Positions 921 to 15,947 of a stretch of 15,947 nt of DNA are shown one piece after another (position 1 is the first letter of the stretch; each line of letters opens with the position of its first letter). Source of the stretch: a virus; the IMG/VR virus record IMGVR_UViG_3300045988_112536, positions 1 through 15,947 of that record. One strand, written 5' to 3'. The translations under genes were made by a program, and so were the position numbers. The notes beneath the pieces were generated by a model. The model worked only from the letters and a program-made list of their open reading frames with translations. It was not told where the DNA came from and made no database searches.

Positions 921-933
921 GTTATACTCCTCC

Positions 934-1758: not shown

Positions 1759-1772
1759 TTTTATTCTCCTCT

Positions 1773-2552
1773 CTATCTCATCCAATCAATAGATAAGCCT
1801 AAGTTTCCGCGGTTTCCGTATGCCGCCATATTAAAATCATTGCCATGCTCGGAAAAATCATCAAAAATTGACATAAACAATTCCTCACAATCTGCAATAA
1901 TCGCATTATTAACGTTTACAATGTGCTCGCGGTACATAATAAGTTCGTTCATTTTACTGCCACGCCATCCTTTTTCTGTCCGATGGCTAGTGTCTACAAC
2001 TGATGTATTACTCTTACCTGTGTTTTTCTCATTAACTGTGCGGCTGTCCTCTCCTGTGCTTTGACCTCTAGTCATGCCGGACGCATAGTCCGCACCGGAA
2101 AAATTAACTTGTGGGTTATCACTGTTAATTCTTTGGTCGTTAGCACTACTACTGTTAGTATCGTTCATAGTTCGATCTGCTTGTGATGTATTGCTTCCAT
2201 CGCTCGTGTCTGTGTCGTCAAACGTAATATTTGTATTTTCTAAAATTTGCGCCACGCTTAAATTACTGTCATACATTGCTTTGTATCTAGGCATGTTGCG
2301 CCGTAATGTATCATTAAGTTTAAGCTTAAAAAGACCAATCGTTTCAAAACCAATCTCACACATGTAAAAGTGTATGATAAACATACGTTCAAATTCTGTC
2401 CGGCTTGATTCATCCCCATTGTACCACGGGAAAGTAAAATCAAAAAGCTTCGGTATACCCTTTTCAATTTTGTCATATGTATTCGCGTTTATCTCTTTCC
2501 AATCCGTAAAGCTTTCGATATAGTCTCTAAGTCTGGTCGTATATGTCGCCAT
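1773..2552 (-). CDS. Lower collar protein (phi29 gp11-like), about 259 aa from ATG 2552
   Basis: It sits immediately after the connector gene, as in phi29. ATG 2552 is preceded by GGGGGTGG and overlaps the connector 3' end by 26 nt. The N-terminal pattern FDFTFPWY...FERMFIIHFYMCEIGFETIGLF is typical of podovirus lower collar proteins, from memory. An S/T/N/D-rich central segment follows. Confidence 0.7.
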   Translation of the reverse strand: MATYTTRLRDYIESFTDWKEINANTYDKIEKGIPKLFDFTFPWYNGDESSRTEFERMFIIHFYMCEIGFETIGLFKLKLNDTLRRNMPRYKAMYDSNLSVAQILENTNITFDDTDTSDGSNTSQADRTMNDTNSSSANDQRINSDNPQVNFSGADYASGMTRGQSTGEDSRTVNEKNTGKSNTSVVDTSHRTEKGWRGSKMNELIMYREHIVNVNNAIIADCEELFMSIFDDFSEHGNDFNMAAYGNRGNLGLSIDWMR

Positions 2553-3417
2553 TTTCGCCACCCCCATTTGCAAGGTTTTCTTTTCGCTCTACACCTAAGC
2601 CGTTACCAATGTATTGTACATCAACCTCAAGTCCAAACAAACGGTTAATCTGTTCACAAGCACGTTTTCGCACACCTAAAAAAGATTGTCGGTTAATTAA
2701 CGTGAGGTCAGCATCTTGTTCGACTTCGCTCGTAATTAAACGTTCTTTTTTTGTACCGTCAATATTACTAATACCGAACTGGACGCAAAAGTCCGCAATT
2801 TCTTGCCGCATTGCTGTTGTTATGTCGCCGAAAACGTTCGGTGGGTTTAGGTTAAGTACTTTAATATTGTCAACGTTGCTTACACCGTCTCTGACAGAAA
2901 TAAAAGGCACAAAGTCATTATACTGTTTAAAAAGGTTTTTTGTGCTTAATCTCTGGTTATCACTGCCTGCAATAATAACAGGTGTTCTTTGCGCGTAAAT
3001 GTTTAAATTTCTTGTCATCCTCATGTTAGCCAAACTCTCCGCGTACATCTGCACATAATCTACGCTTGGGTATCCTACGCTACTATCCCAGATAATAACG
3101 CTATTATTTTTTCCTAAGCTTTTAAAATACTGTTGTGCGTAAGCAAATCGCATGTTCGGCACTCCGTAGATGTCCACAGTGCCGCCAAGGTTGGTTTTCA
3201 TAGCGGCATATTTTTCTAATACATCATCTTTAAAAAAGACAGCCTGTCCCCACCAAAAAAGATAATCTTCTAACACTCGCGGTGGAATTTCTTCCGGCAG
3301 TCCTAACCACTCAAAGCGGTTCACAATCATTTCGTGTAGCATATTAAAATATCGTATATAATAATTGCGATACTGCGGCACGCTGAAATATTCTGCGTCT
3401 TTTGATTGATTTTTCAT
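2527..3417 (-). CDS. Head-tail connector / portal (upper collar, phi29 gp10-like), 296 aa
   Basis: ATG 3417 is preceded by AAGAGGTGG. Remembered phi29 gp10 motifs are present: FEW.GLP, YAQRTPVIIAGSDNQRLS (phi29 NAQKTPVLIRANDNNQLS), TKKERLITSEVE (phi29 KKERMVTDEV) and RKRACEQINRLFGLEV (phi29 REEACEKINELYGLNV). Confidence 0.9.
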   Translation of the reverse strand: MKNQSKDAEYFSVPQYRNYYIRYFNMLHEMIVNRFEWLGLPEEIPPRVLEDYLFWWGQAVFFKDDVLEKYAAMKTNLGGTVDIYGVPNMRFAYAQQYFKSLGKNNSVIIWDSSVGYPSVDYVQMYAESLANMRMTRNLNIYAQRTPVIIAGSDNQRLSTKNLFKQYNDFVPFISVRDGVSNVDNIKVLNLNPPNVFGDITTAMRQEIADFCVQFGISNIDGTKKERLITSEVEQDADLTLINRQSFLGVRKRACEQINRLFGLEVDVQYIGNGLGVERKENLANGGGENGDIYDQT

Positions 3418-3435
3418 TTTCCACCTCTTTTTCCA

Positions 3436-5121
3436 CTAATTATTTGCAAGTCCATAATTACCAATGTCATTAGTGTGCCATATTGTTACGCCACGATCAA
3501 AAATCGAGCGTAAAATGACAAGGTAATCAAGATCTATGTTACCGCTGATTGTGCAATTACGCGTTTTTACAAAATCCCACGCGCTCCGGTTATTGATTGA
3601 TGGTGTACCAATTTCGCCAATCTTATAGCCAAACATTGTAAAATAATCATCAATCTTGCGTGCATACTCTGCACGAATCTGCATCGGGTAATAGCTGATG
3701 TGATCGTTACCGATAATTTTACTAGCATTGCCACTAGAAGTAGTTACGTTTCCGCTCGGTTGTAAATAATGATTAACTACGGCTTTAATACCGTCTCCGA
3801 TAACTTCCGACCAATCAGTGCTACTAAGTGTCGCAAGTGGGCTAGACTTAAAAGCATTACTCGCGGCTTGCCTTCCTGTTGCTATGGCGCTTCCCGCTCC
3901 ACTTGCCGCCGCACCTAAAAATCCAAAACCCGCACCAGATAATGTCTTTCCAACTCCACTAAAAACTCCGGCGGCTGTGTCAACTCCTTGTGATACTATA
4001 CCCCCAGCACTCATTAAAGCACTAGCCCCCGCTGTACTTGTCATCTGTGCAACATATGCTTTGTATGCGTCAGTCATAATTGCACATTTCGGATAATCCG
4101 AAAAAGTAAGCATATCAGTATAATCCTGTGCAAAACCTTTATACTGGATTGGATAAGATACTAATAACGGGTTAGGTGTCATGGCTACTGTGTAGGTAAA
4201 ACTGCAACCATCACTGGAAAAGTATTCATATTTGTATTCAATTCCCGTACCATTATTGTTATTTCCGTATAAAAAATTATACGGATAACAAAATAACTTT
4301 TTGTTTTTTGGAACATAACCATCAATATTATCGTATTTTTTAGGCAAAATTAATTGCTTAAATTGCGTTTCCTCTGCAATAAAGCTTGTAGGCATCATAA
4401 ACGCGTTTAAAATTCCGTCGATCGTACCGTTTGCGTTAGCGGCAATTAAAAATTCGTTTACGCCCTCACCATTATCAAAAACGTTAAAAGTGATAGCAGT
4501 ATACACACCATCTCTAAATTCTCCGCCGTTAAAATTTCCGCTCTCGTCAAACGCACTCGGAATAACAACACTCATAATGTTTCGGTCACTTAGTTCCGGC
4601 GCATCATAATTCTGTTCCGTTTCTTGCTTAACGATATACTCTCCTGTCTCTAATCCCTCAGGAAAAGTATACTTGCCTATAACATCATCAGACTTTTTTA
4701 CAATTTGACGCTCGATATAGCACTTATTTAATACTATATCAAACTGGCAATTTGTCCAAACGTCCATAATAAAATGCACACGGCAAGAATTAACAGACAA
4801 TGGTTCTACGTTTGTAATAAAACCATACATCCAATTATCCATATATCCTACATTTTTAAAAGCAATATAGTTTGCGCTGTCAGCGTATAATTCGCTTACG
4901 GGTGCGGCAAAGTCTGCATAACCACGCTTGACTGGTGCGGCGTTGTCAGTAGCATAGATCGCTTTGCTATCAACATATGTAAAAAGTTCTTCTCGGCTAT
5001 TGAAAAGCCTTACATGGTTATACGACGAATCCCAAGGAATCCCGCGGCAGATTCTTACTTGCGCAACAGGTGCTATCCCGTCTACGTTTTTTTGTGTTGG
5101 CATAGGTATCATGCTATCCAT
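3436..5121 (-). CDS. Tail knob / distal tube protein (phi29 gp9-like), 561 aa from ATG 5121
   Basis: ATG 5121 is preceded by GAGGGA; the ORF-track start at 5160 lies inside an upstream hairpin. The C-terminus FGYKIGEIG...FVKTRNCTISGNID...IFDRGVTIWHTNDIGNY parallels phi29 gp9 YGYKINRVK...YVQTKDCFISGDIN...IFDNGITLWHTDNIGNY. An internal Gly/Ala-rich hydrophobic segment matches the phi29 gp9 pore-forming loop. Confidence 0.9.
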   Translation of the reverse strand: MDSMIPMPTQKNVDGIAPVAQVRICRGIPWDSSYNHVRLFNSREELFTYVDSKAIYATDNAAPVKRGYADFAAPVSELYADSANYIAFKNVGYMDNWMYGFITNVEPLSVNSCRVHFIMDVWTNCQFDIVLNKCYIERQIVKKSDDVIGKYTFPEGLETGEYIVKQETEQNYDAPELSDRNIMSVVIPSAFDESGNFNGGEFRDGVYTAITFNVFDNGEGVNEFLIAANANGTIDGILNAFMMPTSFIAEETQFKQLILPKKYDNIDGYVPKNKKLFCYPYNFLYGNNNNGTGIEYKYEYFSSDGCSFTYTVAMTPNPLLVSYPIQYKGFAQDYTDMLTFSDYPKCAIMTDAYKAYVAQMTSTAGASALMSAGGIVSQGVDTAAGVFSGVGKTLSGAGFGFLGAAASGAGSAIATGRQAASNAFKSSPLATLSSTDWSEVIGDGIKAVVNHYLQPSGNVTTSSGNASKIIGNDHISYYPMQIRAEYARKIDDYFTMFGYKIGEIGTPSINNRSAWDFVKTRNCTISGNIDLDYLVILRSIFDRGVTIWHTNDIGNYGLANN

Positions 5122-5136
5122 GTTTCCCTCATTTCT

Positions 5137-5157
5137 AGGGGAGCATTGCACTCCCCT
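5137..5157 (-). other. GC-rich stem-loop between capsid and tail-knob genes
   Basis: AGGGGAG (5137-5143) pairs with CTCCCCT (5151-5157) around a 7-nt loop. It lies between the palindrome copy at 5166-5185 and the tail-knob SD. No U-tract follows it. Confidence 0.4.
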
Positions 5158-5165
5158 CAAAAATC

Positions 5166-5185
5166 AATGTTTCACGCGAAACATT
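5166..5185. repeat. Palindrome copy 1 (AATGTTTCACGCGAAACATT; one central substitution relative to the other copies)
   Basis: It lies directly 3' of the major capsid stop codon (5186-5188). In the minus-sense transcript it is followed by UGAUUUUUG. Confidence 0.9.
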
Positions 5186-6463
5186 TTACTGGTTGACTGT
5201 GACAGTACCTGTTCCGCTGATCGTGCTATCATATCTTGACGTTGCTTTGACCGTAAGTGTTGCAGCTTTCTCATCATTTGCAATATGCAAGATATTCGAC
5301 CCCGGAATAAAACCTGTATACTGGCTTGTCGCGCCCTCTACGTCAAAATCGAGCATTTGCGGCGTGTACTGGCTGTCTCCGGTCACTAACGCTGTAATCT
5401 CCACATCAGTTCCCGCATTTCCGGCGGTATCTGTAACGCTTACGGTTGTAAGACCGACCGTATCTGTCGTAAAAACAATGCACGGGAAAAAAGGAGAGTA
5501 GGAAAACATTTCACTCATAGTGTAAAAGTAGTTCCATGTCAGCGCCGCGCCGTTTCTCGAATCGGTCAGTGTCCGGAAATTCTCACGTACATTAAAAAAT
5601 CTCATATCAAACAGCGCAAGCTTGATATTGGGGTCGTCAAACTTGTCAATGATAATTTTGCGGACATTGATGTCAACTTTATCCATATTAAAGGCTGTTG
5701 CAAGCACTTCAACATCTAACTCCGCGTCAATTTCCGGCGTTGTGATATAAAAGATTGTCTGATCGTTTGCGCAACTGTCTGCTCCGGCAATGTTGTACTC
5801 GGGATGGGGAAATTTCATCTGACCGATGTAAGCCTTTACAAGCTTTGTCAGCTTCTTCGCGTTTTCTGCGCTCGCTGTAGGGTCTGCAACATTGACCGCA
5901 TAGAGCTGATCTGCCGCGCTCGCGCTCTCAATCAGACGTTTCATACACAGATATTCATCCCAATTTGCCGCCGCAAAAAGACTCTGTACTTTTGCATTTA
6001 TTAAATCGCGCACGCCATATTCCGACTGGAACGCTGTACGCAAGTTGTCAAAAGTGACTGTAACCGCGTACTGGATAGCGGGTGTGATCTTGTGATACGC
6101 CGCCATGACACTTGACTGATAGTAGGCATACAGTTCTGCAACGGTTGCGAACTGATTAAACTGCTTACCTTTTGCCATGTTGATAAAAATTTCTTCCTCC
6201 GTGCCGCCGTAACGCATCGGATCTCTCTTAAGTACTCCAAGGGGATTTTCAAAAAAGACTGTCTCGATTCTCTGCTCCATAATCTGTTCTACTAATGCAT
6301 TAGCGAACGCATTTCGCAACGGAACGATGTTCAGCAAACTTTCGTAGATACTCGAGATATTCTCTGCTGTTGCTTCCGGTATTCTGTTCTGATACTCCAA
6401 ACTCTGCATAGATCTTATTGCGTTTAAAATGGCTACGTTCGTAGCCGGAACTTTGTTACCCAT
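5186..6463 (-). CDS. Major capsid protein (phi29 gp8-like) with C-terminal Ig-like (BIG2-type) domain, 425 aa from ATG 6463
   Basis: ATG 6463 is preceded by GAGAGGAG just after the scaffold stop codon. DAELDVEVLATAFNMDK matches phi29 gp8 EAELDVDVLAKAFNMNR. The C-terminal ~90 aa are beta-rich (VTDTAGNAGTDVEITALVTGDS...TLTVKATS...GTGTVTV), like the gp8 Ig-like domain. Confidence 0.9.
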   Translation of the reverse strand: MGNKVPATNVAILNAIRSMQSLEYQNRIPEATAENISSIYESLLNIVPLRNAFANALVEQIMEQRIETVFFENPLGVLKRDPMRYGGTEEEIFINMAKGKQFNQFATVAELYAYYQSSVMAAYHKITPAIQYAVTVTFDNLRTAFQSEYGVRDLINAKVQSLFAAANWDEYLCMKRLIESASAADQLYAVNVADPTASAENAKKLTKLVKAYIGQMKFPHPEYNIAGADSCANDQTIFYITTPEIDAELDVEVLATAFNMDKVDINVRKIIIDKFDDPNIKLALFDMRFFNVRENFRTLTDSRNGAALTWNYFYTMSEMFSYSPFFPCIVFTTDTVGLTTVSVTDTAGNAGTDVEITALVTGDSQYTPQMLDFDVEGATSQYTGFIPGSNILHIANDEKAATLTVKATSRYDSTISGTGTVTVNQ

Positions 6464-6476
6464 TTTTTCTCCTCTC

Positions 6477-6767
6477 TTACTCTGTACTGCCGTCAAAGTC
6501 AAGCATTTCCGGCGTTACATCTTCTACCACGCCAACATCTGCTTTTGGCTCTTCGATGTCTGCTTTCGGTGTTTCCTGTCCCGCCAACATTTCGCCAAAT
6601 CGCGCAATGTACTTTTCGCGCAAGCCCTCATAGCGTTCTTTGTAGCCGTCGTCTGTTACATTTGCGCCGCTTCTGATAGATTCTGTAATCACATTGATTT
6701 CTTCGTCCAATTCTTCCGGCGCTTCGATCTTTCCCAAGATCGCTTTTAAAGCTTCGTCTGCTGTCAT
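6477..6767 (-). CDS. Scaffolding protein (phi29 gp7-like), 96 aa
   Basis: It is small, very acidic, predicted helical and sits immediately upstream of the major capsid gene. Size is similar to phi29 gp7. ATG 6767 is preceded by AGGTAGG. Confidence 0.7.
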   Translation of the reverse strand: MTADEALKAILGKIEAPEELDEEINVITESIRSGANVTDDGYKERYEGLREKYIARFGEMLAGQETPKADIEEPKADVGVVEDVTPEMLDFDGSTE

Positions 6768-6771
6768 TCTT

Positions 6772-7920
6772 CTACCTACCTTTCCCTAAAAATGATTTTA
6801 AATAATATATAAAAGGTGTTTTTCTAGCGCTTGGAATAGGCGCTACACCAGATATATTGATTGTACATTCTTGGTAAATATTTGTATCACTTAATACAAA
6901 AAAACGAATAATTACACGTCGCAATGCTGTAGCGTTTACTTTGATATAGCAATAACCTCTTTCTTTTTTAACAAGTTCCACACCGTTCGGCACATCAACA
7001 CCCCAATCATAAGTAGATCTTACATTAAACCTAACTACAGTCCCAACATTTGCTTGCTGACTGTAGGGTGTAACGTTAATTTCCGGTGCGGGTGGCGCGG
7101 GTCTGTTTATGCCAATCTGGCATTGTGCTGTAACGCTCTGGCTATCAAGCAACCAAAAGTTTACAACGCTTGTAACTTGCGCACCGTTTGCATTTCCGCT
7201 AACAATCAACGCATTATCTTCTTTTGTTGCTGTTAAATACTGACCGATGTTATAAGTCCATTCCGAGTTAGCATTAACAGTAATTCTAATGTTTTCCCCA
7301 TCTACTATACTAGCACTAATAGGGTCTATTGTCAGCACTTTTATTTCCGGCGGTAGATTACCATGCATATCATCATAGACAGACATACTGCAATTATAGC
7401 GGTACTCTTGCACGTCTTCTCCTTGTAAAGTTGGGTTTTCAAAATTTTTTAGAACGTAAGTACTTGCCGCCCGCATATCTGTAGCATTTTGCAAAACTTC
7501 GAGCGTATTTGCGAATGAAGTTTGTAACTCATAACTCAAGTAATAGACGGCTAACTCAACGCTACCGATACTACCATAACCACCGTTTTTCCAAGCATCA
7601 TAATATCCGGCTTTTCGCGTGTACCAAGTCCATTGTGCTAAACCGTAACCTTTGTGATCTCTGTCTCCATCAAGTCCGCTGTTAATAAATTGATCTCTGG
7701 TTATAATACCACTATCGACATTATTAGTATAAATACGACTCCTGTTAAAAAAATTTGTACTGTTGTTATCATTTTCACATCTGTATGGTACAATTCCACT
7801 TTCCGCCCACAAGTTACCAAGCAAAGCCGCCAACCCTATTTCGTTGTTAATTAAATTATACAACCCGTTCCAAACTGCTCTTGTATAACCGTAGTTTACA
7901 TAATCTGATTCCGTATTCAT
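6772..7920 (-). CDS. Peptidoglycan hydrolase with phage tail-lysozyme-type N-terminal domain and two beta-rich (Ig/cell-wall-binding-like) C-terminal repeats
   Basis: LLGNLWAESG ... GYGLAQWTWYTRK matches the phage tail lysozyme pattern (catalytic E in the ESG context, GLAQWT). ATG 7920 overlaps the ATPase TGA stop (TGATG coupling). Two ~80-aa beta-rich repeats are separated by RPAPPAPE. It could be the tail-associated lysin (phi29 gp13 role) or the endolysin. Confidence 0.75.
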   Translation of the reverse strand: MNTESDYVNYGYTRAVWNGLYNLINNEIGLAALLGNLWAESGIVPYRCENDNNSTNFFNRSRIYTNNVDSGIITRDQFINSGLDGDRDHKGYGLAQWTWYTRKAGYYDAWKNGGYGSIGSVELAVYYLSYELQTSFANTLEVLQNATDMRAASTYVLKNFENPTLQGEDVQEYRYNCSMSVYDDMHGNLPPEIKVLTIDPISASIVDGENIRITVNANSEWTYNIGQYLTATKEDNALIVSGNANGAQVTSVVNFWLLDSQSVTAQCQIGINRPAPPAPEINVTPYSQQANVGTVVRFNVRSTYDWGVDVPNGVELVKKERGYCYIKVNATALRRVIIRFFVLSDTNIYQECTINISGVAPIPSARKTPFIYYLKSFLGKGR

Positions 7921-8972
7921 CACATTAACCTCACACTAAGTATATCAAGTACAATATCCTTACACTTTAAATCCTTAAATCTTAACAATCCTAAGTCATA
8001 AGACCGTTTAAGATAGTCGTAGATAAAAGTCTGACTACTCAACATCAAAGTATCGGCGTCATGACTGCTCGCGTCAAACGTAAAGCGATATTTACAACTA
8101 TTGTCAACAGTTCTGTCAATATACACAATACCTTTTTCTGGGTATTCTCTGACCGCATAATTATCTTTTCCACAAACTAGCGTAAATATATAACGGCTGT
8201 TTCCGCTAATACTTTCCACAAAAGCGCTTGCATCACATAGATATACACCATCGGCGCTACTCTTCTGATACTGGCTATTTTTAAACACTTTTGCAAATTT
8301 GCTTTCATTCATAGCATTTTGTGCGTCTTTGTTAATAACAAATTGTGCAACCCATCCATGCCCACGCAAAAAATTAGTGTTATCCCTTAACCTTTTGTGT
8401 ATTCCAAAATATATAAAATACGGATTTAAAAGTGTTACATAATTTGCCATTAAATAAGTTGGTACTTCTCGTACCTGTTTCCCTTTACCTCTACAGATCG
8501 TTCTCAACGTACTTTCAAACTTTGTTATCTCATTTTTTAAATATCCATTATTTTCAAGCACAAATTCATCAAAAACGATCAAACTAACGTCTTTAAACAT
8601 TGGGCTGTACTTTTTGAGTTTATCGGTATTATTAAAATATACCGCGTATCCAAGTAGCACAACGTTATCATCTTTATCATGTAGCATCATTGCACTGATT
8701 AGTCCTTTTACAATGCTTTTATTAGTCACAACTTTTCCATACTCGGGGTAAATGTCCAGTACATCTTCATACATTTTTCCACTGCTCGATATTTCATCCT
8801 GTGTTCTGTATAAAAAAACAACTTGCTTATCATTCTGCACATTTTTTAAAGATTCAATCAAAAGCGCTGTAGTCTTTCCGGCGCTACGATTTCCGATAAT
8901 CATTCTTAAAATCGGTTCTTCGTTATCCAAGTCTTTTACATTTTTTATACTATCAAGATTGTAATAAGACAT
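7920..8972 (-). CDS. DNA encapsidation (packaging) ATPase, phi29 gp16-like, 350 aa
   Basis: Walker A is IIGNRSAGKTT and Walker B is LIVFDEF. LLNPYFIYFGI parallels phi29 VVNPYFLFFNL, GIVYIDRT parallels GLMYIDTA, and C-terminal LLRFKD parallels YLRFDN. ATG 8972 is preceded by GGGGGAAA. Confidence 0.9.
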   Translation of the reverse strand: MSYYNLDSIKNVKDLDNEEPILRMIIGNRSAGKTTALLIESLKNVQNDKQVVFLYRTQDEISSSGKMYEDVLDIYPEYGKVVTNKSIVKGLISAMMLHDKDDNVVLLGYAVYFNNTDKLKKYSPMFKDVSLIVFDEFVLENNGYLKNEITKFESTLRTICRGKGKQVREVPTYLMANYVTLLNPYFIYFGIHKRLRDNTNFLRGHGWVAQFVINKDAQNAMNESKFAKVFKNSQYQKSSADGVYLCDASAFVESISGNSRYIFTLVCGKDNYAVREYPEKGIVYIDRTVDNSCKYRFTFDASSHDADTLMLSSQTFIYDYLKRSYDLGLLRFKDLKCKDIVLDILSVRLM

Positions 8973-8987
8973 TACGTTTCCCCCAAA

Positions 8988-9056
8988 CTAGCACGGCGGG
9001 AATCGAACCGCGCTATAAAGTCAAAATCTACTGTTCTCCCTCTGAACTACGCGCCA
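8988..9056 (-). tRNA. tRNA-Gln(UUG)-like gene with a non-canonical variable/T region
   Basis: Manual fold of the minus-strand sequence. Acceptor stem is UGGCGCG / CGUGCUA (7 bp, 2 G-U). U8A9 follows, then D stem GUUC/GAAC with loop AGAGGGA. Anticodon stem is GUAGA/UUUAU with loop UU-UUG-AC. T loop is UUCGAUU and the discriminator is G. U1-A72 plus G73 fits bacterial tRNA-Gln identity. Only 19 nt lie between the anticodon stem and the acceptor 3' strand, so the T stem needs a bulged C or a 4-bp/8-nt-loop form. No CCA is encoded. Confidence 0.55.
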
Positions 9057-9060
9057 ATAA

Positions 9061-9076
9061 TGTTTCACGTGAAACA
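9061..9076. repeat. Palindrome copy 2 (TGTTTCACGTGAAACA, perfect 16-mer)
   Basis: It lies between the holin stop codon (9081-9083) and the tRNA 5' end (9056). Confidence 0.9.
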
Positions 9077-9080
9077 CTTC

Positions 9081-9410
9081 TTATTTTTTCGGTGCTTTCT
9101 CCAAGATTTCTCTAATCTTTTCCGGCACTAAGCTTTTATTTATCCGGCTTACATTTTCCAAAATACTGCCGATTTCCATTAAAATAATATAAACGCAAAT
9201 ACTCTCGAGCACCGGAACGCTAAAGCCCATATCAAGAAAACTCTGCCCGTAGTCAATCAAAAACCCAACAGCCACAATGACGATTTCGCCGAACTTGTTA
9301 AAAAGTCCGTCACGCATCACACTGCTGTTAAAATTACTTTTTTTAACTGCCATAACAATTCCGGTAATAAAATCAAGCGCAATAAACAACATTACAATTA
9401 CAATAGTCAT
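9081..9410 (-). CDS. Holin (phage_holin_4_1 / TcdE-like family), 109 aa from ATG 9410
   Basis: ATG 9410 is preceded by AAAGAGGAG; the ORF-track start at 9440 is a non-ATG extension. There are three hydrophobic helices. DFITGIVMAVKK ... ILMEIGSILENV resembles the family pattern D.iTGi..A ... nE.lSIlEN. The C-terminal tail is charged. Confidence 0.85.
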   Translation of the reverse strand: MTIVIVMLFIALDFITGIVMAVKKSNFNSSVMRDGLFNKFGEIVIVAVGFLIDYGQSFLDMGFSVPVLESICVYIILMEIGSILENVSRINKSLVPEKIREILEKAPKK

Positions 9411-9749
9411 TTTTTCTCCTCTTTTCTGCAGCGGTAGCAATTAACAGAATTACCGCCGCATTGATAGTTTTTTAGAGTTTCGCGGTATCGGCTCGCACCA
9501 ACCACGGCGCGGGGCACGGTTTTCCCCGTCGGTTTACGCCCACAAAAACCAATCCGGTACTACTCCACACACTCCAATTACTCGGACATAGGACATTTCG
9601 TAAGGAATTTAGTAATTGAAGTGTGTGCAATAGTACCATATAAATTATGTTTTATGCCATGTACGGCAAGCCATGCCGCTCCATGCCGTACATGCCATAA
9701 ATGCCATTTCTACGCCGTACAATGCCGTGAATGGCATTGCACGGAGATC
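9411..9749 (-). ncRNA. Long structured, locally GC-rich noncoding region; candidate ncRNA (pRNA-like?) and/or late regulatory region
   Basis: No SD-led ORF is present. Hairpins lie at 9428-9459 (9 bp), around 9500-9545 (CGGGG/CCCCG and GGCG/CGCC), 9556-9637 (7 bp + 3x3 internal loop + 17 bp), 9654-9698 (11+3 bp) and 9715-9744 (12 bp). Three stems each contain one position that is G-U on the minus-sense RNA but A-C on the plus-sense RNA. Confidence 0.4.
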
Positions 9750-10148
9750 TTACCGATTAAACGGATTGTACGGCTCTGCCGGAACAAGCTTTGAAATGTC
9801 AATGCCCTTGAGGTATGCGCTCTGGTACTTCTTGCCCTTGTACTTACCCTCAACAACCTTGAACGCAATTTCTACTTCGGAATCAGCACCGATCTCTTCC
9901 GCCTTAATTGCTGTCTCGTCGTCCGGTTTCTGTTCAACGCCGTCAAGATAAATGGGAAAGTCGAACTGGGTGTGTGCCTTTACAAGCTTTGTGCCGTCAT
10001 CGGAAATCTTTACCGGACAGTCAATCTCTGTGTTAAGACCAGCTTTTTCGATCAGCGCCGCCGCGGCGTCGTCTGTGATCGCTACCATAATGGAAAACTT
10101 TCCGTCGTTGGAAAATGCGGAATATACTTTACCTGTTGCGTATAACAT
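9750..10148 (-). CDS. Early protein, possibly an ssDNA-binding (OB-fold, DUF2815-like) protein, 132 aa from ATG 10148
   Basis: ATG 10148 is preceded by AAAGGAG. The N-terminal ATGKVYSAFSNDGKFSIMV pattern, its size and its place in the replication module are compatible with a phage SSB (phi29 p5 is of similar size). The functional call is weak. Confidence 0.5.
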   Translation of the reverse strand: MLYATGKVYSAFSNDGKFSIMVAITDDAAAALIEKAGLNTEIDCPVKISDDGTKLVKAHTQFDFPIYLDGVEQKPDDETAIKAEEIGADSEVEIAFKVVEGKYKGKKYQSAYLKGIDISKLVPAEPYNPFNR

Positions 10149-10201
10149 AATTTTTTTCTCCTTTTCTGATTTGAATTTGATTGATGTGTAATAACGCAAG
10201 C

Positions 10202-10219
10202 ATGTTTCACGTGAAACAT
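10202..10219. repeat. Palindrome copy 3 (ATGTTTCACGTGAAACAT, perfect 18-mer)
   Basis: It is intergenic, 25 nt after the stop codon of the 93-aa gene and 53 nt before ATG 10148. Confidence 0.9.
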
Positions 10220-10244
10220 TTTAAAGTGTTGCTTGCTGTGATCT

Positions 10245-10526
10245 CTACTTCTTTGACGCTTTGTAGGCATCATACTCTTCTGCTGTCATTGAATTCTCAA
10301 TGAACGTAGACAACGGCATAAAGCGGGTTTCCTCTTTACGGGCAACCTCAATCAGATTACCCTTTGCAATACCGAAAGACGCTAAAATCTCGTCTCTCTC
10401 CGCCGCTGTAGTAATTTCATGATCCCATTCTACATGGTCTCCCATTTTAATACCATCTTCTGGCGATACCGTCATAATCTGGTATAATACTTTTGTTGGG
10501 ATAGTTCTGGAAATTACCTTTTCCAT
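10245..10526 (-). CDS. Hypothetical early protein, 93 aa
   Basis: ATG 10526 is preceded by AAGAGAGGAAA. I recognise no motif. Confidence 0.75.
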   Translation of the reverse strand: MEKVISRTIPTKVLYQIMTVSPEDGIKMGDHVEWDHEITTAAERDEILASFGIAKGNLIEVARKEETRFMPLSTFIENSMTAEEYDAYKASKK

Positions 10527-10621
10527 TTTTTGTTTCCTCTCTTTCTTTAAATAATGTAGCGAAACTGAGTAGCTTATTATAGCTTGCCATCGTCAGACTG
10601 TAAGTTGCTATCTTTTCAGTG

Positions 10622-10642
10622 ACGGGAGAGTGTTTCTCCCGT
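10622..10642 (-). other. 8-bp GC-rich stem-loop after the 87-aa gene
   Basis: ACGGGAGA / TCTCCCGT with a 5-nt loop, starting 8 nt after the stop codon at 10650. No U-tract follows on the minus-sense RNA. A weak promoter-like TTACAG-16-TATAAT lies downstream of it. Confidence 0.3.
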
Positions 10643-10649
10643 TTCGGCT

Positions 10650-10913
10650 TTATCTGAAAAATTCTGTTTTATGAAATTCCCTGTCTACATAGAAATTAAT
10701 ATAACCAACTTCTTCCGCTTCTACTAAACGTCCAAGATCTTTGTTCGCTCTTCTTGTAACTCTGATAACATCGTATACTTCTGTATTCGGTTCTTCAAAC
10801 GATGAGTAAATACGGTCTAAGTAATATGTGTGAGTTGAATTTCTATAACACGTTTCGCTTTTTTCAACTGCTTGCGTAAGCTTGTACTGGGTATCTGTTG
10901 ATATTCTTACCAT
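10650..10913 (-). CDS. Hypothetical early protein, 87 aa
   Basis: ATG 10913 is preceded by AAGTGAGGAAA and sits downstream of the promoter at 10966-10994. Confidence 0.75.
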   Translation of the reverse strand: MVRISTDTQYKLTQAVEKSETCYRNSTHTYYLDRIYSSFEEPNTEVYDVIRVTRRANKDLGRLVEAEEVGYINFYVDREFHKTEFFR

Positions 10914-10965
10914 TGCGCTTTCCTCACTTTCTTGTGCTTTGTTATTTGTTTTTTCTTACATGATT

Positions 10966-10994
10966 ATAATATCATGTTTGGTCTATTTTGTCAA
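10966..10994 (-). promoter_or_regulatory. Sigma-A-type promoter (TTGACA-17-TATTAT with TG extension)
   Basis: On the minus strand, -35 TTGACA is at 10994-10989, the spacer is 17 nt, and -10 TATTAT is at 10971-10966 preceded by TGa. It overlaps the stop codon of the 58-aa ORF. Confidence 0.75.
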
Positions 10995-11167
10995 GCTAAA
11001 ATTATATAATTACTAGCAAAATGTTTCACTTCTGATTTTGCGTATTTTACTACTAATGTTATAAGCTCTTTGCTTAATTCAATGCATTTTCCGTGTGCAT
11101 TAAATATACAGATTTTTTCATCCCCTATCCACGTGTCATTGGCGTCGTAAAGTTCTGATACTGTCAT
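10991..11167 (-). CDS. Small hypothetical early protein, 58 aa (not in the ORF track)
   Basis: ATG 11167 is preceded by AAGAGGGGAAA directly after the stop codon of the 69-aa gene. My translation is MTVSELYDANDTWIGDEKICIFNAHGKCIELSKELITLVVKYAKSEVKHFASNYIILA. Confidence 0.6.
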   Translation of the reverse strand: MTVSELYDANDTWIGDEKICIFNAHGKCIELSKELITLVVKYAKSEVKHFASNYIILA

Positions 11168-11184
11168 GTTGTTTCCCCTCTTTC

Positions 11185-11394
11185 TTAAAATTCCATGAAG
11201 CTTGCTAATCTCGATTTATTCAGTGCAATACTATCATCTATTAACTGATTAACAACATTCAATACATTTTCCATTTTAGCGTAAGGAAATGCACCGCCAA
11301 TATAGAAAAATATTGACCCACCAAAAGGGCTTAAATTATTTTCTTTCATGTGTCTTTTTGTAAAATCGTAAATTTCTTTTTCTTTCTTTGTCAT
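11185..11394 (-). CDS. Hypothetical early protein, 69 aa
   Basis: ATG 11394 is preceded by AAGTGAGGAAA and sits downstream of the promoter at 11450-11477. Confidence 0.75.
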   Translation of the reverse strand: MTKKEKEIYDFTKRHMKENNLSPFGGSIFFYIGGAFPYAKMENVLNVVNQLIDDSIALNKSRLASFMEF

Positions 11395-11449
11395 TGTGTT
11401 TCCTCACTTTCTGCTTGTTTTATTGTTTTGTAACTTCCTTACATTATCT

Positions 11450-11477
11450 ATTATACGCTTATTGCCGGAAATGTCAA
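11450..11477 (-). promoter_or_regulatory. Sigma-A-type promoter (TTGACA-16-TATAAT)
   Basis: On the minus strand, -35 is at 11477-11472 and -10 at 11455-11450. It is followed by the conserved leader AGATAATGTAAGGAA...CAGAAAGTGAGGAAA. Confidence 0.75.
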
Positions 11478-11537
11478 GAAGTTTTTTCTAAAATTTTAAA
11501 CAATTTAAAATTGTTTCTTTTATCTCAAGGTTAGCAT

Positions 11538-11678
11538 CTATAACTTCTGGGTTGATAATCCAAGTCCTTCTAATAAATTACATAACCATAGTCCGTTATA
11601 AATCATGTGCAAACTAATTTTATCATCAACCACCATTTTCAGCACTGCATACACAGCTTCTTCTTTGCTTATTTTCAT
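11538..11678 (-). CDS. Small hypothetical early protein, 46 aa (not in the ORF track)
   Basis: ATG 11678 is preceded by TGGAGGT 9 nt upstream. My translation is MKISKEEAVYAVLKMVVDDKISLHMIYNGLWLCNLLEGLGLSTQKL. Confidence 0.5.
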   Translation of the reverse strand: MKISKEEAVYAVLKMVVDDKISLHMIYNGLWLCNLLEGLGLSTQKL

Positions 11679-11693
11679 ACTATTGTACCTCCA

Positions 11694-11868
11694 TTATTTC
11701 CACTCAACTGGAATTTTAATAATTTTCCATCCGCCGTATGCTTTTGTTGTGTCCAGATATTTAATAGGCAATCGCGCCACATTTCCAAAATCTTCTAATA
11801 CATATCTGTAGTTTTTGGTGTCAACTGTACCATTCTTTTTTTACCTTTTCATAAAACGATCTTCTCAT
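11694..11868 (-). CDS. Small ORF interrupted at an A7 tract (possible +1 frameshift, homopolymer error or pseudogene)
   Basis: ATG 11868 has an excellent SD (AAGTGAGGAAA) and promoter but stops after 15 codons at 11821. The +1 frame stays open from the A7 tract (11836-11842) to TAA at 11694-11696 and has no ATG of its own. Confidence 0.3.
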
Positions 11869-11912
11869 GTTTATTTCCTCACTTTCTTGTACTTTGTTTC
11901 CTTACATTATGT

Positions 11913-11941
11913 ATTATACCTATGGTAGTTATATATGTCAA
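11913..11941 (-). promoter_or_regulatory. Sigma-A-type promoter (TTGACA-17-TATAAT)
   Basis: On the minus strand, -35 is at 11941-11936 and -10 at 11918-11913, immediately after the polymerase stop codon. It is followed by the leader ACATAATGTAAGGAA...CAAGAAAGTGAGGAAA. Confidence 0.8.
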
Positions 11942-11945
11942 GCAT

Positions 11946-14093
11946 TTATTCGCAATTATCTATAAAATTTTTTCCTATGATTTCTGAATACTCGTCTGTA
12001 ATGCCTAAAGTGTAAGTTGTATCTACTATAGCTATATTTGACGCTGTTGTAAATGTTGATTCTTTACCTAGATAATCTGTTATTGTTATCGAATGTATGT
12101 TCGATTCATTAAAATAAGACACGGTGCGTCCAGAATCAGTAAATAACTTTCCAATTTTAAAATCATAAATACCATTTCCGCGCTCTAACTCTGCCGCACC
12201 TTTTTGCTTTGATAAGCCGGACACAGTAACATGTAACTTGTTATCTTTGCTATCTATGTATGCGTACTTTTTTGCACCTAGCGTCTTAAATTTTTTATAA
12301 TTACCGTCGTCATCCCATATCCCTAAATAAAAACGCGTTGCAGTGCCATCCTCATTTTGACGGTCTGCATAATTGCGATAACGTTGTTTTTTTGCTAATA
12401 AGTAATCATTGCGGTCTTTAAAGATTTGTAAATGCTGTTTGCCTATAAATTTTACACTATCAGTATCTGCATAAACAAAATCCCACCCAACAGCATCTAT
12501 CATCTTTTGCAACTCCCACCGTGCATTAGCAGTAATATATACCCCCCATTGATAAAGCAAAAATGAATTTTTTGATGTAGAATACTGTGCTATTGATTCT
12601 ATTAAATCCGGTGTAACTTTAGACCATTCGCCATTATCGTAAACTATTTCATCGTGACATATGTCTGTAACCATTGTACCAAAAACAGAATTTAAGCTGT
12701 TTTTACTTTTCATATACTCATATTCTTTTCCTTTTATGTCCTTAAGCTGTGTTTTTTTGTCGTAAAACTCTAACATAGTGCTTACTATTGGCGCGGGCAA
12801 ATAATCTTTTTTCGCCATGTAACCGCATATCCACTCTATACCATCAAAATGATATTGATTGCATATAATGATAAAGTCTAGTTCCGTGCAAGCATAGGTT
12901 ACCCATTCAGCAGATAACACGCGCCCGTTGTCGTTTATATACTCTTTACTAAATGATACACAATGCGCAAAGTCTATATATGGCACTGTAACATCGTCAT
13001 GTACTGTTATAGACTTGAGTGTTACTTGCATAATGATAGCGTTTTGTTTTTTGTTACAATCAGATAATAGTTGTGTAAAGTTTTTTGGTATATACTCTAT
13101 AAACGGTGTCATAGGGTATAAATCTGAACATATACATGATGGATAACTTGACACTCTATCCATACTGTAAACGTTGTCTATGATTGCGTCTGCATAATAT
13201 CTGCTAGCATGTGTATTTCCTCCGCGAAAAGCTTTTCGCAATAGTGTATATACTTCAGGCGTAGGCATTAGACTTTCGAATAATTCTCTGTAATTTCCGT
13301 CCGCTCTGCAAGCTTTGCGCATTTCACGACGAACATATCCGGTCGATGTTAGCGGTATTGTTGCTAATGTGTCATTATAATCATCCATTTTTGACAGTAT
13401 GCATTCTTCAAGTCCTTTTACATCGTTATAATCATATGCTAACTCTGTTCCTGTTTGTGGTGTGTCTGGTGTCCGTACTTTTTTATAATCATATGTGTCT
13501 ACTAATTTTCGATGAATACAAAATTTTGAATTTTCGCAAAACTTTGATAAACTCATATTCGATAAAAAATATGAACATCTAAACTCAAAATGAGGGAATG
13601 TTTCACGTGAAACATCTAGCCTATTTACTGTTTTTAGATAATCAGATTTTAAACAAGCATTGAATTTTATGACCTTATGGGATTCTCGTGCAAAAAGTGA
13701 TACTATATAAAAAAAATCCTTTACAAACATAAATTCATAAGCTAAATTATGGACATAAATGACTAATTGTTTTGATGCTGATAATTCCAAGTATTCTCCT
13801 AGTTTACGTAGAAACTTAGTAAATTCTTCCCACCGTGTTCCAAAACAAACATTTCCTTTGTAACAAAACTGCCAATGGTACATAAATGCATAAGGTTTTT
13901 CGCTGTTTATTGTTGTAGTTTCTATATCAAATGTTGCAGGGCTATCTATATAAGCAATAGCCCTTTTTCCTTTTTTTCTGACTGTAGTATAATTCCAATT
14001 TATTGCGTTATATGGATAATCGTATACTGTGTAAACTGTTTCATTTTTTGTATATTCTTTCCCTTTTTCCGTGTAAAATGTTTGTACTACCAT
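11946..14093 (-). CDS. Protein-primed family-B DNA polymerase, 715 aa
   Basis: Exo I is FDIETTT, Exo II is HNLAYEF and Exo III is YDYNDVKG. Motif A is MDRVSSYPS (DxxSLYPS), motif B is KSKNSLNSVFG (Kx3NSxYG), motif C is YADTDS and KxY is GAKKYAY. Genome ITRs fit protein priming. Confidence 0.95.
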   Translation of the reverse strand: MVVQTFYTEKGKEYTKNETVYTVYDYPYNAINWNYTTVRKKGKRAIAYIDSPATFDIETTTINSEKPYAFMYHWQFCYKGNVCFGTRWEEFTKFLRKLGEYLELSASKQLVIYVHNLAYEFMFVKDFFYIVSLFARESHKVIKFNACLKSDYLKTVNRLDVSRETFPHFEFRCSYFLSNMSLSKFCENSKFCIHRKLVDTYDYKKVRTPDTPQTGTELAYDYNDVKGLEECILSKMDDYNDTLATIPLTSTGYVRREMRKACRADGNYRELFESLMPTPEVYTLLRKAFRGGNTHASRYYADAIIDNVYSMDRVSSYPSCICSDLYPMTPFIEYIPKNFTQLLSDCNKKQNAIIMQVTLKSITVHDDVTVPYIDFAHCVSFSKEYINDNGRVLSAEWVTYACTELDFIIICNQYHFDGIEWICGYMAKKDYLPAPIVSTMLEFYDKKTQLKDIKGKEYEYMKSKNSLNSVFGTMVTDICHDEIVYDNGEWSKVTPDLIESIAQYSTSKNSFLLYQWGVYITANARWELQKMIDAVGWDFVYADTDSVKFIGKQHLQIFKDRNDYLLAKKQRYRNYADRQNEDGTATRFYLGIWDDDGNYKKFKTLGAKKYAYIDSKDNKLHVTVSGLSKQKGAAELERGNGIYDFKIGKLFTDSGRTVSYFNESNIHSITITDYLGKESTFTTASNIAIVDTTYTLGITDEYSEIIGKNFIDNCE
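13598..13615. repeat. Palindrome copy 4 (ATGTTTCACGTGAAACAT, perfect 18-mer) inside the polymerase ORF
   Basis: It is identical to copy 3. It lies in-frame within the polymerase, encoding DVSRETF, between the Exo II and Exo III motifs. Confidence 0.9.
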
Positions 14094-14584
14094 AGGCTTC
14101 TACCTTTTATATATGTATGCATTGCAGAGCTATATTCTTGCAGTTCTAACTTTATTTCGTTTGCTGACTTTCCCTCTTTATATAGTAAATCATATATTTC
14201 TATTATATCTTCTGACGGATTGCGCATTTTTAAGCTTTTGTACTCTTGAGAGTGTAAAAAAGCGTAAAAATCTTGATCGTTTAACAATTCTTCTGATACT
14301 CCTAAGTTTCTAAGCGCTTGTGTTCGCTCTTGCCTTATCTCTCTTATCCCTGTCAATGTGTGACTTCTTGCCGTTACAAATCGTACAAGCTTCAAGTAAG
14401 CGCGCTGATTGTACTTATCTGAATTCCATTCATCCCTTTTACCTAAGACATTCAGTACACTTTCTTTCTTATATCCAGCTTTTATGATGCGATCTCTTTG
14501 TTTGTTAGCAAGCGGCGCTAACTTTTTGTACATGTTGCGCCGCTCTTTTCCGCGCAAGGATAAAAGATAATCTTTATTATACAT
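14087..14584 (-). CDS. Candidate terminal protein (basic protein translationally coupled to the polymerase), 165 aa from ATG 14584
   Basis: It sits immediately upstream of the polymerase, as phi29 gene 3 does. Its stop codon overlaps the polymerase ATG (ATGGTAG, 7-nt overlap), and its ATG overlaps the upstream stop codon (ATGTATAA). It is K/R-rich. I see no sequence similarity to phi29 TP. The ORF-track start at 14605 is a TTG. Confidence 0.4.
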   Translation of the reverse strand: MYNKDYLLSLRGKERRNMYKKLAPLANKQRDRIIKAGYKKESVLNVLGKRDEWNSDKYNQRAYLKLVRFVTARSHTLTGIREIRQERTQALRNLGVSEELLNDQDFYAFLHSQEYKSLKMRNPSEDIIEIYDLLYKEGKSANEIKLELQEYSSAMHTYIKGRSLW

Positions 14585-14837
14585 TACGTAAATGCTCGGA
14601 AGCAAACGCCCAAGCTATGCGTTCATCAATAATTTTTAAAACCCCGTCTAAGTCAAAATCGTAACACTCAATAACTACGGTCACTAATTTTACCGTTTTG
14701 TAATTAACGCAAACGGCAAATGTTAAACCTATAGACCCGTCATCATAAGGGCAAGCACTGTCTAGCAATACATTTTCCCATTTCGTGCGCACTCTATAAG
14801 CAATAGCTTTTTCCTTATACTCTTGTAATTTTGTCAT
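14577..14837 (-). CDS. Hypothetical early protein, 86 aa
   Basis: ATG 14837 is preceded by GGAGGG directly after the amidase stop codon. Confidence 0.75.
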   Translation of the reverse strand: MTKLQEYKEKAIAYRVRTKWENVLLDSACPYDDGSIGLTFAVCVNYKTVKLVTVVIECYDFDLDGVLKIIDERIAWAFASEHLRNV

Positions 14838-14839
14838 GA

Positions 14840-15562
14840 TTATCCCTCCGTTATAATAGCTTTAAATCCGGCACTTTCAAGCGCTATTAACAAATTATGT
14901 GCATTTTCGATATTGTGAAAAGCTCCTTTTTGATCTAGCACAGATACACGATAGATCTTAGATTCATCAATCTTTTCGCTTGACACGTCCAATTCATCAT
15001 TCTTAGCTTCCGCATCTGCTGGCGGTTCGCATATGCACCTTGTTCCTGTGATGCCGTAAACGATTGCCGCCGCCATTTCATGCGGATTGTAAAAAGCAAT
15101 GTCTTTCTTCGAATTGACAAAACAACATTCAATTAACATTGCGGGCGCTTTTGTCCGGCGTAAAAATCCTAGCTTCTTGTTGGTTTTTATGCCCCTGTTC
15201 TTAAACCCCAACGAACAAATCGCATTAAGCACATTGTCAGCGTAAACACTTGCTTTCGAGTCCTTGTCATAAATATATACCTCTGTTCCATTAGCCTCTG
15301 AATTTGCGGCAGAATTAAAGTGGATTGAAATATCTAAATCAACTTTGTGTTCGTTGCATTTATTGATAATACGGGTTAAAACATTAGTTTGAGATGTTCC
15401 GTCTTCCACCGTGCAATCATAGACTGTGTGTCCCATTCTGTTCAACTCGTCAACCACAAGTTCTTTTACACGCCTATTCTCAAGAGATTCAGAGATAAGC
15501 CCTACAGCACCGCAAGCTACTTTTCCGTGCGGGTTATGACCCGCGTGTACATTGATTACCAT
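14840..15562 (-). CDS. N-acetylmuramoyl-L-alanine amidase (Amidase_3 type) with a short SPOR-like C-terminal segment, 240 aa
   Basis: The Amidase_3 pattern is present: VHAGHNP..GAVG..E, DLDISIHFNS, GTEVYIY, NRGIK and PAMLIECCFVNSKKD. The C-terminus YRVSVLDQKGAFHNIENAHNLLIALESAGFKAIIT resembles one half of a SPOR repeat. ATG 15562 is preceded by AAGAGAGGAAA. Confidence 0.85.
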   Translation of the reverse strand: MVINVHAGHNPHGKVACGAVGLISESLENRRVKELVVDELNRMGHTVYDCTVEDGTSQTNVLTRIINKCNEHKVDLDISIHFNSAANSEANGTEVYIYDKDSKASVYADNVLNAICSLGFKNRGIKTNKKLGFLRRTKAPAMLIECCFVNSKKDIAFYNPHEMAAAIVYGITGTRCICEPPADAEAKNDELDVSSEKIDESKIYRVSVLDQKGAFHNIENAHNLLIALESAGFKAIITEG

Positions 15563-15605
15563 TTTATTTCCTCTCTTTCTGATAAACTATTCCTATCTAT
15601 AATCC

Positions 15606-15634
15606 ATTTTAAACCTACTATATAAAATTGTCAA
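15606..15634 (-). promoter_or_regulatory. Sigma-A-type promoter (TTGACA-17-TAAAAT), the rightmost promoter of the genome
   Basis: On the minus strand, -35 is at 15634-15629 and -10 at 15611-15606, 22 nt inside the right ITR boundary and 44 nt upstream of the amidase ATG. Confidence 0.75.
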
Positions 15635-15656
15635 CCAGAACTTTTGTTCATGTATG

Positions 15657-15947
15657 AGTTATCCACATCGAACAAGTGTTCGTGCTAGACGGACTAATGG
15701 TGTCCGTCTACCGCGGACACTGTTTTTTCGTGTTGTGTGAACAACTTTGAAAACTCGTTGAATTGTCTGAAAACTTAAAAATCAATATGCATTATGCACA
15801 AAGATTTAGTCGATCTTTGTGCATTTTTGTTATTGACAAATTGGAATAGATCAACTTTTAGGTAGCGAATTTAACATCTGATTTATCGAACGTATGTTTG
15901 TCTTTTTGGGGAAAACAGTGTCCGCGCTACACGGACTATGTAACTTT
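15657..15947. repeat. Right inverted terminal repeat
   Basis: It is the exact reverse complement of 1-291. It carries mirror copies of the terminator hairpin (15794-15833, facing outward) and of the ITR repeat motifs. Confidence 0.95.

Follow-up and report, generated by a model that had tools for sequence, protein, structure and literature searches.

A candidate miniature packaging RNA with a covarying three-way junction near the gp16-type ATPase gene of phi29-like phages

We analyzed a 15,947-bp stretch of viral DNA (IMG/VR record IMGVR_UViG_3300045988_112536, positions 1 to 15,947; hereafter the window), which is the complete linear genome of a phi29-like podovirus, with emphasis on a 339-nt gap between genes (9411–9749) for which the original prediction had named a packaging RNA (prohead RNA, pRNA) as a candidate. 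The genome ends in perfect inverted terminal repeats of 291 bp (1–291 and 15657–15947) that begin AAAGT, the phi29 termini being AAAGTA, and every gene lies on the minus strand, a one-strand layout unlike that of phi29. In the order of transcription, an amidase is followed by a type-B DNA polymerase, several small open reading frames (ORFs) and a 149-aa ORF (9750–10199), and, beyond the gap, by a holin (PF05105), a tRNA-Gln, a gp16-type ATPase, a lysozyme, a phi29-type capsid protein, a tail knob, a gp10-type connector and the lower collar. The gap is noncoding, bounded by the stop of the 149-aa ORF (9750) and the start of the holin gene (9410), and it contains a 74-nt pRNA-like three-way junction.

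That the gap encodes a conserved structured RNA is nearly certain. As predicted, it is structured on the minus strand: the minus-sense RNA folds with −140.7 kcal/mol (z = −7.1; 0 of 100 shuffles folded as well), and the plus-sense RNA with −111.6 kcal/mol (z = −5.2), the sense fold being 29 kcal/mol more stable. The five hairpins first described from the sequence were recovered at the same places by folding, by inverted repeats and by RNAalifold. The gap is kept at 85–95% identity in >30 related contigs, and in 30 related sequences one-sided changes in the stems mostly yield G-U on the minus sense (e.g., pair counts of GC:23, GU:6, AU:1 and of AU:18, GU:10), with several G-U pairs invariant. 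The original remark that odd pairs are G-U on the minus strand and A-C on the plus strand was therefore correct and extends to these 30 sequences; such changes, together with the invariant G-U pairs, argue for selection on the RNA in the transcribed orientation. The claim that the gap is GC-rich held against the downstream late genes (0.485 vs. 0.35–0.39) but not against the upstream ORF (0.475–0.50); the three-way junction alone has 64% GC. In agreement with the prediction, the minus strand of 9411–9749 yielded no sigma-70-like promoter, and no intrinsic terminator (GC-rich stem followed by a U run) turned up in 9000–10300. The run UUUUUGU after the long hairpin of the gap is the strand that joins helices A and C of the three-way junction.

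Known families did not account for the region. A blastn search with 9000–10200 returned no match among 50,697 phage records, and the 4227 curated families of Rfam 15 matched the window only with tRNA and, by chance, with microRNA precursors, the latter on the long hairpin (E = 0.03 or weaker, far under the gathering scores). A hammerhead or other ribozyme, a riboswitch and a tRNA-like element were considered and dropped, as none had support from Rfam. A 55-aa ORF inside the gap (9472–9639, minus strand) was also rejected as a gene: it has no Shine-Dalgarno (SD) sequence, and 1-nt and 11-nt indels in relatives break its frame.

The junction, which the original prediction had listed only as a GC-rich element, was resolved by comparing two clades. 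Its parts, read on the minus-sense RNA, are as follows.

9483–9556, minus strand: 74-nt three-way-junction core, pRNA-like (RNAalifold, pair counts, covariance model R1)
9556–9549, minus strand: helix A, 5′ strand, CGGAUUGG
9548–9542, minus strand: linker J(A/C), UUUUUGU, 7 nt
9541–9538 and 9515–9512, minus strand: helix C, 5′ strand GGGC and 3′ strand GCCC
9537–9530, minus strand: 8-nt bulge on the 5′ strand of the C/E arm, GUAAACCG
9534–9530, minus strand: bulge nucleotides AACC(G), equivalent of the "right-hand" or CE loop and proposed partner of the D loop (covariation)
9529–9516, minus strand: E hairpin, ACGG (9529–9526), loop GGAAAA (9525–9520), CCGU (9519–9516)
9511, minus strand: single linker base C between the 3′ strand of helix C and D
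9510–9495, minus strand: D hairpin, GCGCC (9510–9506), loop GUGGUU (9505–9500), GGUGC (9499–9495)
9504–9500, minus strand: D-loop nucleotides (U)GGUU, "left-hand" equivalent and complement of the bulge (covariation)
9494–9483, minus strand: GAG (9494–9492), then the 3′ strand of helix A, CCGAU(A)CCG (9491–9483)

The helices follow one another around the junction in the order A, C (with the E hairpin contiguous with the 3′ strand of C), D and A′, as in the pRNA family. Helix A has 8 bp and one bulged base; GGAG and CUCU may form a distal segment, and neither varies. RNAalifold, unaided, predicted helices A, C, E and D from 30 window-clade relatives and likewise from five sequences of a divergent clade. 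The element occurs once per genome, and its loop pattern matched only 35 IMG/VR and 24 metagenome contigs, all of the size of phi29-like genomes and of the same lineage.

The divergent clade has a gap of 334–359 nt at the same place, in which the structures follow in the same order. Compared with the window clade, it has an ATPase of about 80% identity, a holin of 68% and a counterpart of the 149-aa ORF of only 35%, and the gap itself has no blastn similarity to that of the window. Covariance model R1, trained on the window clade only, nevertheless found the element at the syntenic position there (E ~1e-6 to 1e-7). An alignment of the two clades with MAFFT misaligned the covarying helices and was replaced by a model-based alignment (A4), in which 99.6% of the cells were paired, vs. 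35–37% in controls with slid partners. A4 was fitted to the model and is thus biased towards structure, yet it is anchored unambiguously by invariant loops, and RNAalifold agrees independently. The compensatory changes that the original prediction had proposed to look for in relatives are present on A4 as double changes in 18 of the 25 core pairs, and no shuffle attained the observed scores.

The bulge of the C/E arm is complementary to the D loop and covaries with it between lineages, which is a mark of the pRNA family, and loop–loop complementarity of a kind that would permit ring formation, raised in the original prediction, was thus found. The helix between bulge and D loop is 100% paired on A4. 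Between the clades AACC/GGUU changes to CACC(A)/(U)GGUG, a double change (AU:5, CG:5) that preserves the pairing. A single sequence carries U-G in place of C-G, and position 9530, whether G or A, pairs with the U at 9504. Other clades have the loop pairs ACCA/UGGU, UGACU/AGUCA, AGACA/UGUCU and UGCA/UGCA, and Clostridium phage HM2 has GUAGUCU/AGACUAC, a perfect complementarity of 7 bp. For seven distinct loop types taken together, the complementarity had p ~ 1e-5 in a composition-preserving shuffle test.

The same architecture recurs in three sister clades. In the L089/L091 clade (ATPase 38–39% identical to that of the window) the junction lies directly downstream of gp16, and in the HM2-type and L157/L160 clades (ATPase ~41–44% identical) an RNA of ~90 nt lies directly after the gp16 stop codon. 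R1 matched L089 weakly. Model R2, whose training set includes L089, matched L091 (E = 4e-5) and L160 (E = 9e-4), on which it was not trained, and model R3, trained only on five HM2-type members, matched L159 (E = 3e-6), L160 (E = 2e-5) and HM2 (E = 1e-3), so that L160, found by both R2 and R3, bridges the two models. In a plain MAFFT alignment of the five HM2-type members, 96.6% of the cells were paired (37–45% when slid), and 11 of the 29 pairs had double changes, two of them in the helix between bulge and D loop (UGACU/AGUCA to AGACA/UGUCU) and two in the distal A helix. Helix A has two parts in this clade, and its distal and proximal segments covary: the 5′ GAAG pairs with CUUC of the 3′ tail to form the distal part, which changes to GGAA/UUCC.

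In the sister clades a promoter-like −35/−10 site ends 6–7 nt before the RNA, and downstream of it lies a long terminator-like stem with a U run. In HM2 the gene after that has a promoter of its own (TTGATA-17-TATAAT), and such a promoter after the terminator would set the RNA apart as its own transcription unit, flanked by gp16 and the next gene. As judged from these sequences, the sister-clade RNAs are candidate stand-alone small RNA genes.

In the HM2 genome, the RNA of ~95 nt with the same three-way junction comes right after the ATPase gene (L161 2557–2651, i.e., ~6106–6200 of LT600745.1). It is preceded by the promoter-like TTGACC-17-TAAGAT with a TG and followed by a 9-bp stem and a U run, and record LT600745.1 annotates nothing across this stretch. 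The near-consensus promoter after the RNA terminator is seen in the HM2-type clade at ~2690–2730 in L086 and L152 and at 2701–2729 in L161.

As the original prediction stated, the window encodes the two proteins of a phi29-type motor with which a pRNA works, and phages of the pRNA family likewise have both.

7920–8972, minus strand: gp16-type DNA-encapsidation ATPase (PF05894 Podovirus_Gp16, full length, residues 11–344 of 350, E = 8e-25), presumed protein partner of the RNA
2527–3417, minus strand: gp10-type head–tail connector (PF05352 Phage_connector, E = 5e-48), presumed docking site

The capsid protein is also of the phi29 type (PF25622), and PHROG matches agree with Pfam on the motor and capsid genes. 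The ATPase gene is ~0.5 kb downstream of the candidate RNA in the window, and the RNA lies beside gp16 (within ~0.5 kb) in all five clades. Judged by its ATPase, the window is closest among cultured phages to Clostridium phage HM2 (43.7% identity; Bacillus phages, 25–29%). The contigs that bear the element belong to one lineage, and several are labelled as human-gut metagenome assemblies.

Around the core, the gap holds further conserved structures.

9717–9742, minus strand: hairpin 1 of the 5′ domain, 10 bp, loop AUUCAC (fold, RNAalifold)
9651–9701, minus strand: hairpin 2 of the 5′ domain (fold, inverted repeats, RNAalifold)
9658–9726, minus strand: six sense-strand GGCAU motifs (14 on the sense strand genome-wide)
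9556–9637, minus strand: long hairpin, arms 9556–9582 and 9611–9637, 89% complementary (inverted repeat I1)
9468–9482, minus strand: conserved single-stranded tail CGAAACUCUAAAAAA, directly 3′ of helix A
9427–9460, minus strand: GC-rich hairpin 5, arms 9427–9436 and 9451–9460, 14-nt loop, just 5′ of the holin SD
9416–9421, minus strand: holin SD, GAGGAG, read from the sequence (ATG at 9410–9408)

In hairpin 1 the pair types (GC:23, GU:6, AU:1 and CG:27, UG:3) suggest that selection acts on the RNA. At the apex of hairpin 2, units containing CGGCAU are gained and lost among relatives through 10-nt and 20-nt indels. The GGCAU motifs are spaced by 9–21 nt, five at 9–10 nt, and perhaps form an array of sites for an RNA-binding or a DNA-binding protein. 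The long hairpin, which consists of 7 bp, a UUG-GAG internal loop with a G.G mismatch, 17 bp and a variable loop of 28–40 nt, abuts the 5′ strand of helix A and meets it exactly where other clades carry the promoter-like site. Among window-clade sequences, four of its pairs change on both sides in a compensatory way (columns 138/208, 140/206, 151/195 and 153/194). The divergent clade has a hairpin at the same place too, which differs in sequence but shares the internal motif UAUUGCA...GGAGUA and shows further double changes. The G.G mismatch, flanked by U-G and U-A (9572–9575 and 9618–9621, minus strand), is constant in both clades while the surrounding stems covary, which suggests a recognition site for a protein or nuclease. 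Hairpin 5 occurs in the window clade only, is absent from the divergent clade and has no U run after it. A tail like (A)CCU(U)CUAAAA follows helix A in most clades (e.g., L152 ~2637–2646 and L160 ~2711–2721), and this motif is present whether a terminator or a ribosome-binding site comes next. A closing helix between the 5′ and 3′ ends of the whole region, hinted at by RNAalifold in the divergent clade, was rejected, as the corresponding positions vary freely in the window clade.

We compared the core with phi29 pRNA, read from the phi29 genome, and with GA-1 pRNA, taken from its annotated record. The helix order 5′-A-C-[bulge]-E-C′-D-A′-3′ is common to phi29 and the window core. The C/E arm of phi29 reads GGGG, AUUAAACC, CUGA-UUGAGU-UCAG, CCC..., followed by the D hairpin UUGAU-UGGUUG-UCAA; in both RNAs the 3′ strand of E is contiguous with that of C, the 8-nt 5′ bulge ends in AAACC (phi29 AUUAAACC, window GUAAACCG), and the complement of bulge and D loop has the same letters, AACC/GGUU. 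The D loops share UGGU (phi29 UGGUUG, GA-1 GUGGUA, window GUGGUU), and the E hexaloop is A-rich in GA-1 (GUAAAA) and in the window (GGAAAA). In phi29 a fragment of ~75 nt (nt 23–97) suffices for self-association and connector binding (PMC4201828), and the window core of 74 nt has that size. The loop pairs of Bacillus pRNAs follow a CC/GG core rule (PMC12670572), and the covariation between lineages centers on a CC/GG core here as well. The sister-clade RNAs, whose two ends pair in helix A and which lie between a promoter-like site and a hairpin with a U run, resemble phi29 domain I and its terminal hairpin.

There are differences too. The helices of the window are shorter than those of phi29 (C, 4 vs. 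~9 bp; D, 5 vs. ~8 bp; A, 8–9 vs. ~25 bp with bulges). The window element lies mid-genome by gp16, whereas the pRNA of the phi29 family lies at the left genome end; the window copy, unlike phi29 pRNA, lacks a promoter and terminator of its own and is flanked by extra conserved hairpins. Its relatives come from other hosts, HM2 infecting Clostridium and contigs deriving from the human gut, whereas the established pRNAs are from Bacillus phages. As the original prediction held, established pRNA is confined, in the searchable literature, to Bacillus-type phi29-like phages (PMC11476376, PMC5066667, PMC12670572): it is presented as peculiar to phi29 and its relatives among the Bacillus phages (PMC11476376, PMC5066667, PMC6266182), a 2025 survey that added 12 pRNAs mentions only Bacillus phages as their source (PMC12670572), and a pRNA in Streptococcus phage Cp-1 is proposed only (PMC6266182). 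The Cp-1 proposal is, like the window RNA, a prediction in a non-Bacillus phi29-like phage that is missed by Bacillus-derived covariance models; the Cp-1 record carries no pRNA annotation, R2 finds nothing in it, and nothing links Cp-1 to the window RNA. We found no description of the window RNA in the searchable literature.

Given its architecture, covariation and genomic association, the 74-nt core is probably a miniature prohead or packaging RNA; the part of the original proposal that concerns 9483–9556 is upheld to this extent. Nothing in pRNA corresponds to the remaining ~265 nt, which comprise hairpins 1 and 2 with their GGCAU motifs, the long hairpin and hairpin 5 upstream of the holin SD, and these call for a different account. 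The gap would be transcribed along with the other minus-strand genes and fold into a multi-domain RNA. By analogy with phi29, copies of the core would attach to the procapsid at its connector vertex and join into a ring, AACC(G) in the bulge of each copy pairing with (U)GGUU in the D loop of its neighbor and helix A pointing outward as a platform for the gp16 ATPase. Hairpins processed by RNase III occur in phage polycistronic mRNAs, such as the early mRNA of T7, and the long hairpin resembles these (~25 bp with a conserved internal mismatch or loop, intergenic on a polycistronic transcript), the likeness being one of form only. It could serve as an RNase III-type processing site that frees a 5′ end near GGAG, the counterpart of 5′ GAAG or GGAG in other clades; alternatively, it might extend helix A. 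We infer prohead binding, ring formation, the packaging role and the way in which the RNA ends would arise in the window clade. A wider view, which we offer tentatively, is that packaging RNAs are an ancestral and widespread part of phi29-type motors rather than a Bacillus peculiarity and have, in gut and Clostridium phages, a minimal form of ~74–95 nt that current models miss; the window lineage may have lost the RNA's own promoter, so that the RNA is cut from an early–late polycistronic transcript at the long hairpin and motor assembly is coupled to the late switch.

Several results weigh against a packaging role. The Rfam model of phi29 pRNA (RF00044, "3WJ core of Phi29 Bacteriophage pRNA"), a check named in the original prediction, returned no match at E <= 10 on the whole window or on the 161-nt slice 9440–9600, nor did it match the sister-clade loci; as a positive control, phi29 scored 145.4 bits (gathering threshold 100). 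R2 had no significant match in phi29 or Cp-1, and on the annotated GA-1 pRNA it hit the correct register with 11.8 bits (E = 0.06), which equals a chance match. R1 and R2 had no matches in about 55 more distant phi29-like loci. The window copy has neither consensus promoter nor terminator and is embedded between an ORF and the holin SD, whereas members of the pRNA family are discrete small transcripts with their own promoter and terminator. Its helix A is short, a long gp16-binding helix with bulges is not evident, and the junction has its unpaired strand (7 nt) between A and C, where phi29 has it between C and D. Taken singly, the loop–loop complementarities are modest (p = 0.003–0.1), and the pairing of bulge and D loop could be an intramolecular tertiary contact, as in compact three-way junctions. 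Sequence homology between the window element and the pRNA of the phi29 family did not reach significance, and we do not file the window RNA as a member of RF00044; in our judgment, it most likely works like a pRNA.

Such an intramolecular contact would hold the junction together if the folded RNA stayed in the polycistronic mRNA as a cis-acting leader of the late operon and governed the early-to-late transition, through processing or stability, translational control of the holin, or processive antitermination. The window clade offers several points in favor of a leader: the element sits between the early ORF and the holin SD without promoter or terminator of its own, the single-strand gene layout means that read-through must be managed, a clade-specific hairpin directly precedes the SD, and the long hairpin appears similar to a processing site. 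We regard this as unlikely, because in the three sister clades the RNA is downstream of gp16, with the promoter-like site before it and the terminator-like stem and U run after it, and the near-consensus promoter of the next gene there (HM2) means that the RNA cannot be the leader of that gene; moreover, no alternative antiterminator pairing was seen in the sister-clade sequences, and no riboswitch or leader family matched in Rfam. The same candidate stand-alone genes would suit a small RNA acting in trans outside packaging (e.g., as a decoy, as a sponge for proteins or in the control of host or phage mRNAs) that shares only the junction shape with pRNA, and so would the absence of a significant sequence or model match to Bacillus pRNAs and the conserved single-stranded tail CUCUAAAA, which could be a seed or a protein-binding site. 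This, too, seems improbable to us, for it leaves unexplained why two loops that vary among clades stay complementary to each other, why the gene lies beside gp16 in all five clades, and why the element is restricted to phages with a phi29-type motor.

An element acting as DNA (e.g., an origin, a cruciform, or a late promoter whose repeats bind an activator) is the least probable account, and we give it very little credence. The region does lie at the early/late boundary, and the six GGCAU motifs and the palindromes in 9651–9742 could be protein-binding sites. However, most one-sided changes produce G-U on the sense strand, where the opposite strand would show A.C, and invariant G-U pairs are common, the sense fold is the more stable by the margin given above, the spacers inside the palindromes vary by 10–20 nt, the three-way junction has no palindromic symmetry, and the gap contains no sigma-70-like promoter on its minus strand. 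The 5′ GGCAU part alone could still have a role as DNA.

To our knowledge, pRNA is the sole known RNA component of any viral DNA-packaging motor, and it has become a workhorse of RNA nanotechnology. Reviews up to 2024–2025 treat it as confined to Bacillus-type phi29-like phages. A broader question is how, in the many other phi29-like phages, the gp16 ATPase docks on its connector. An RNA of pRNA architecture that covaries, is specific to a lineage and lies beside gp16, in human-gut phages and in the cultured phage HM2, makes the question of docking directly testable. If it is a packaging RNA, it would provide a minimal pRNA from nature whose kissing-loop pairs are diverse, and it would inform the question of whether pRNA belonged to the ancestral form of this type of motor; if it is not, it is still a new and strongly supported family of structured RNA that is absent from Rfam 15.

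A generic three-way-junction descriptor, which demanded a kissing run of at least 4 bp, recovered most of the loci tried and missed L091 and L159; it was dropped as a survey tool, since its background in AT-rich DNA (24–26) came close to the scores of true elements (24–29).

The tRNA-Gln gene (anticodon UUG; 8987–9057, minus strand; 42.8 bits against the Rfam tRNA model) is part of the late operon, with the holin gene on one side and the gp16 ATPase gene on the other, and as the tRNA must be cut from the polycistronic transcript, RNA processing already operates on this stretch. Searches of Pfam, PHROGs and PDB sequences with the product of the 149-aa ORF (minus strand) upstream of the gap gave no match. 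This protein is only ~35% identical in the divergent clade, vs. 72% for the flanking polymerase and 82% for the ATPase, and diverges in step with the 5′ RNA domain.

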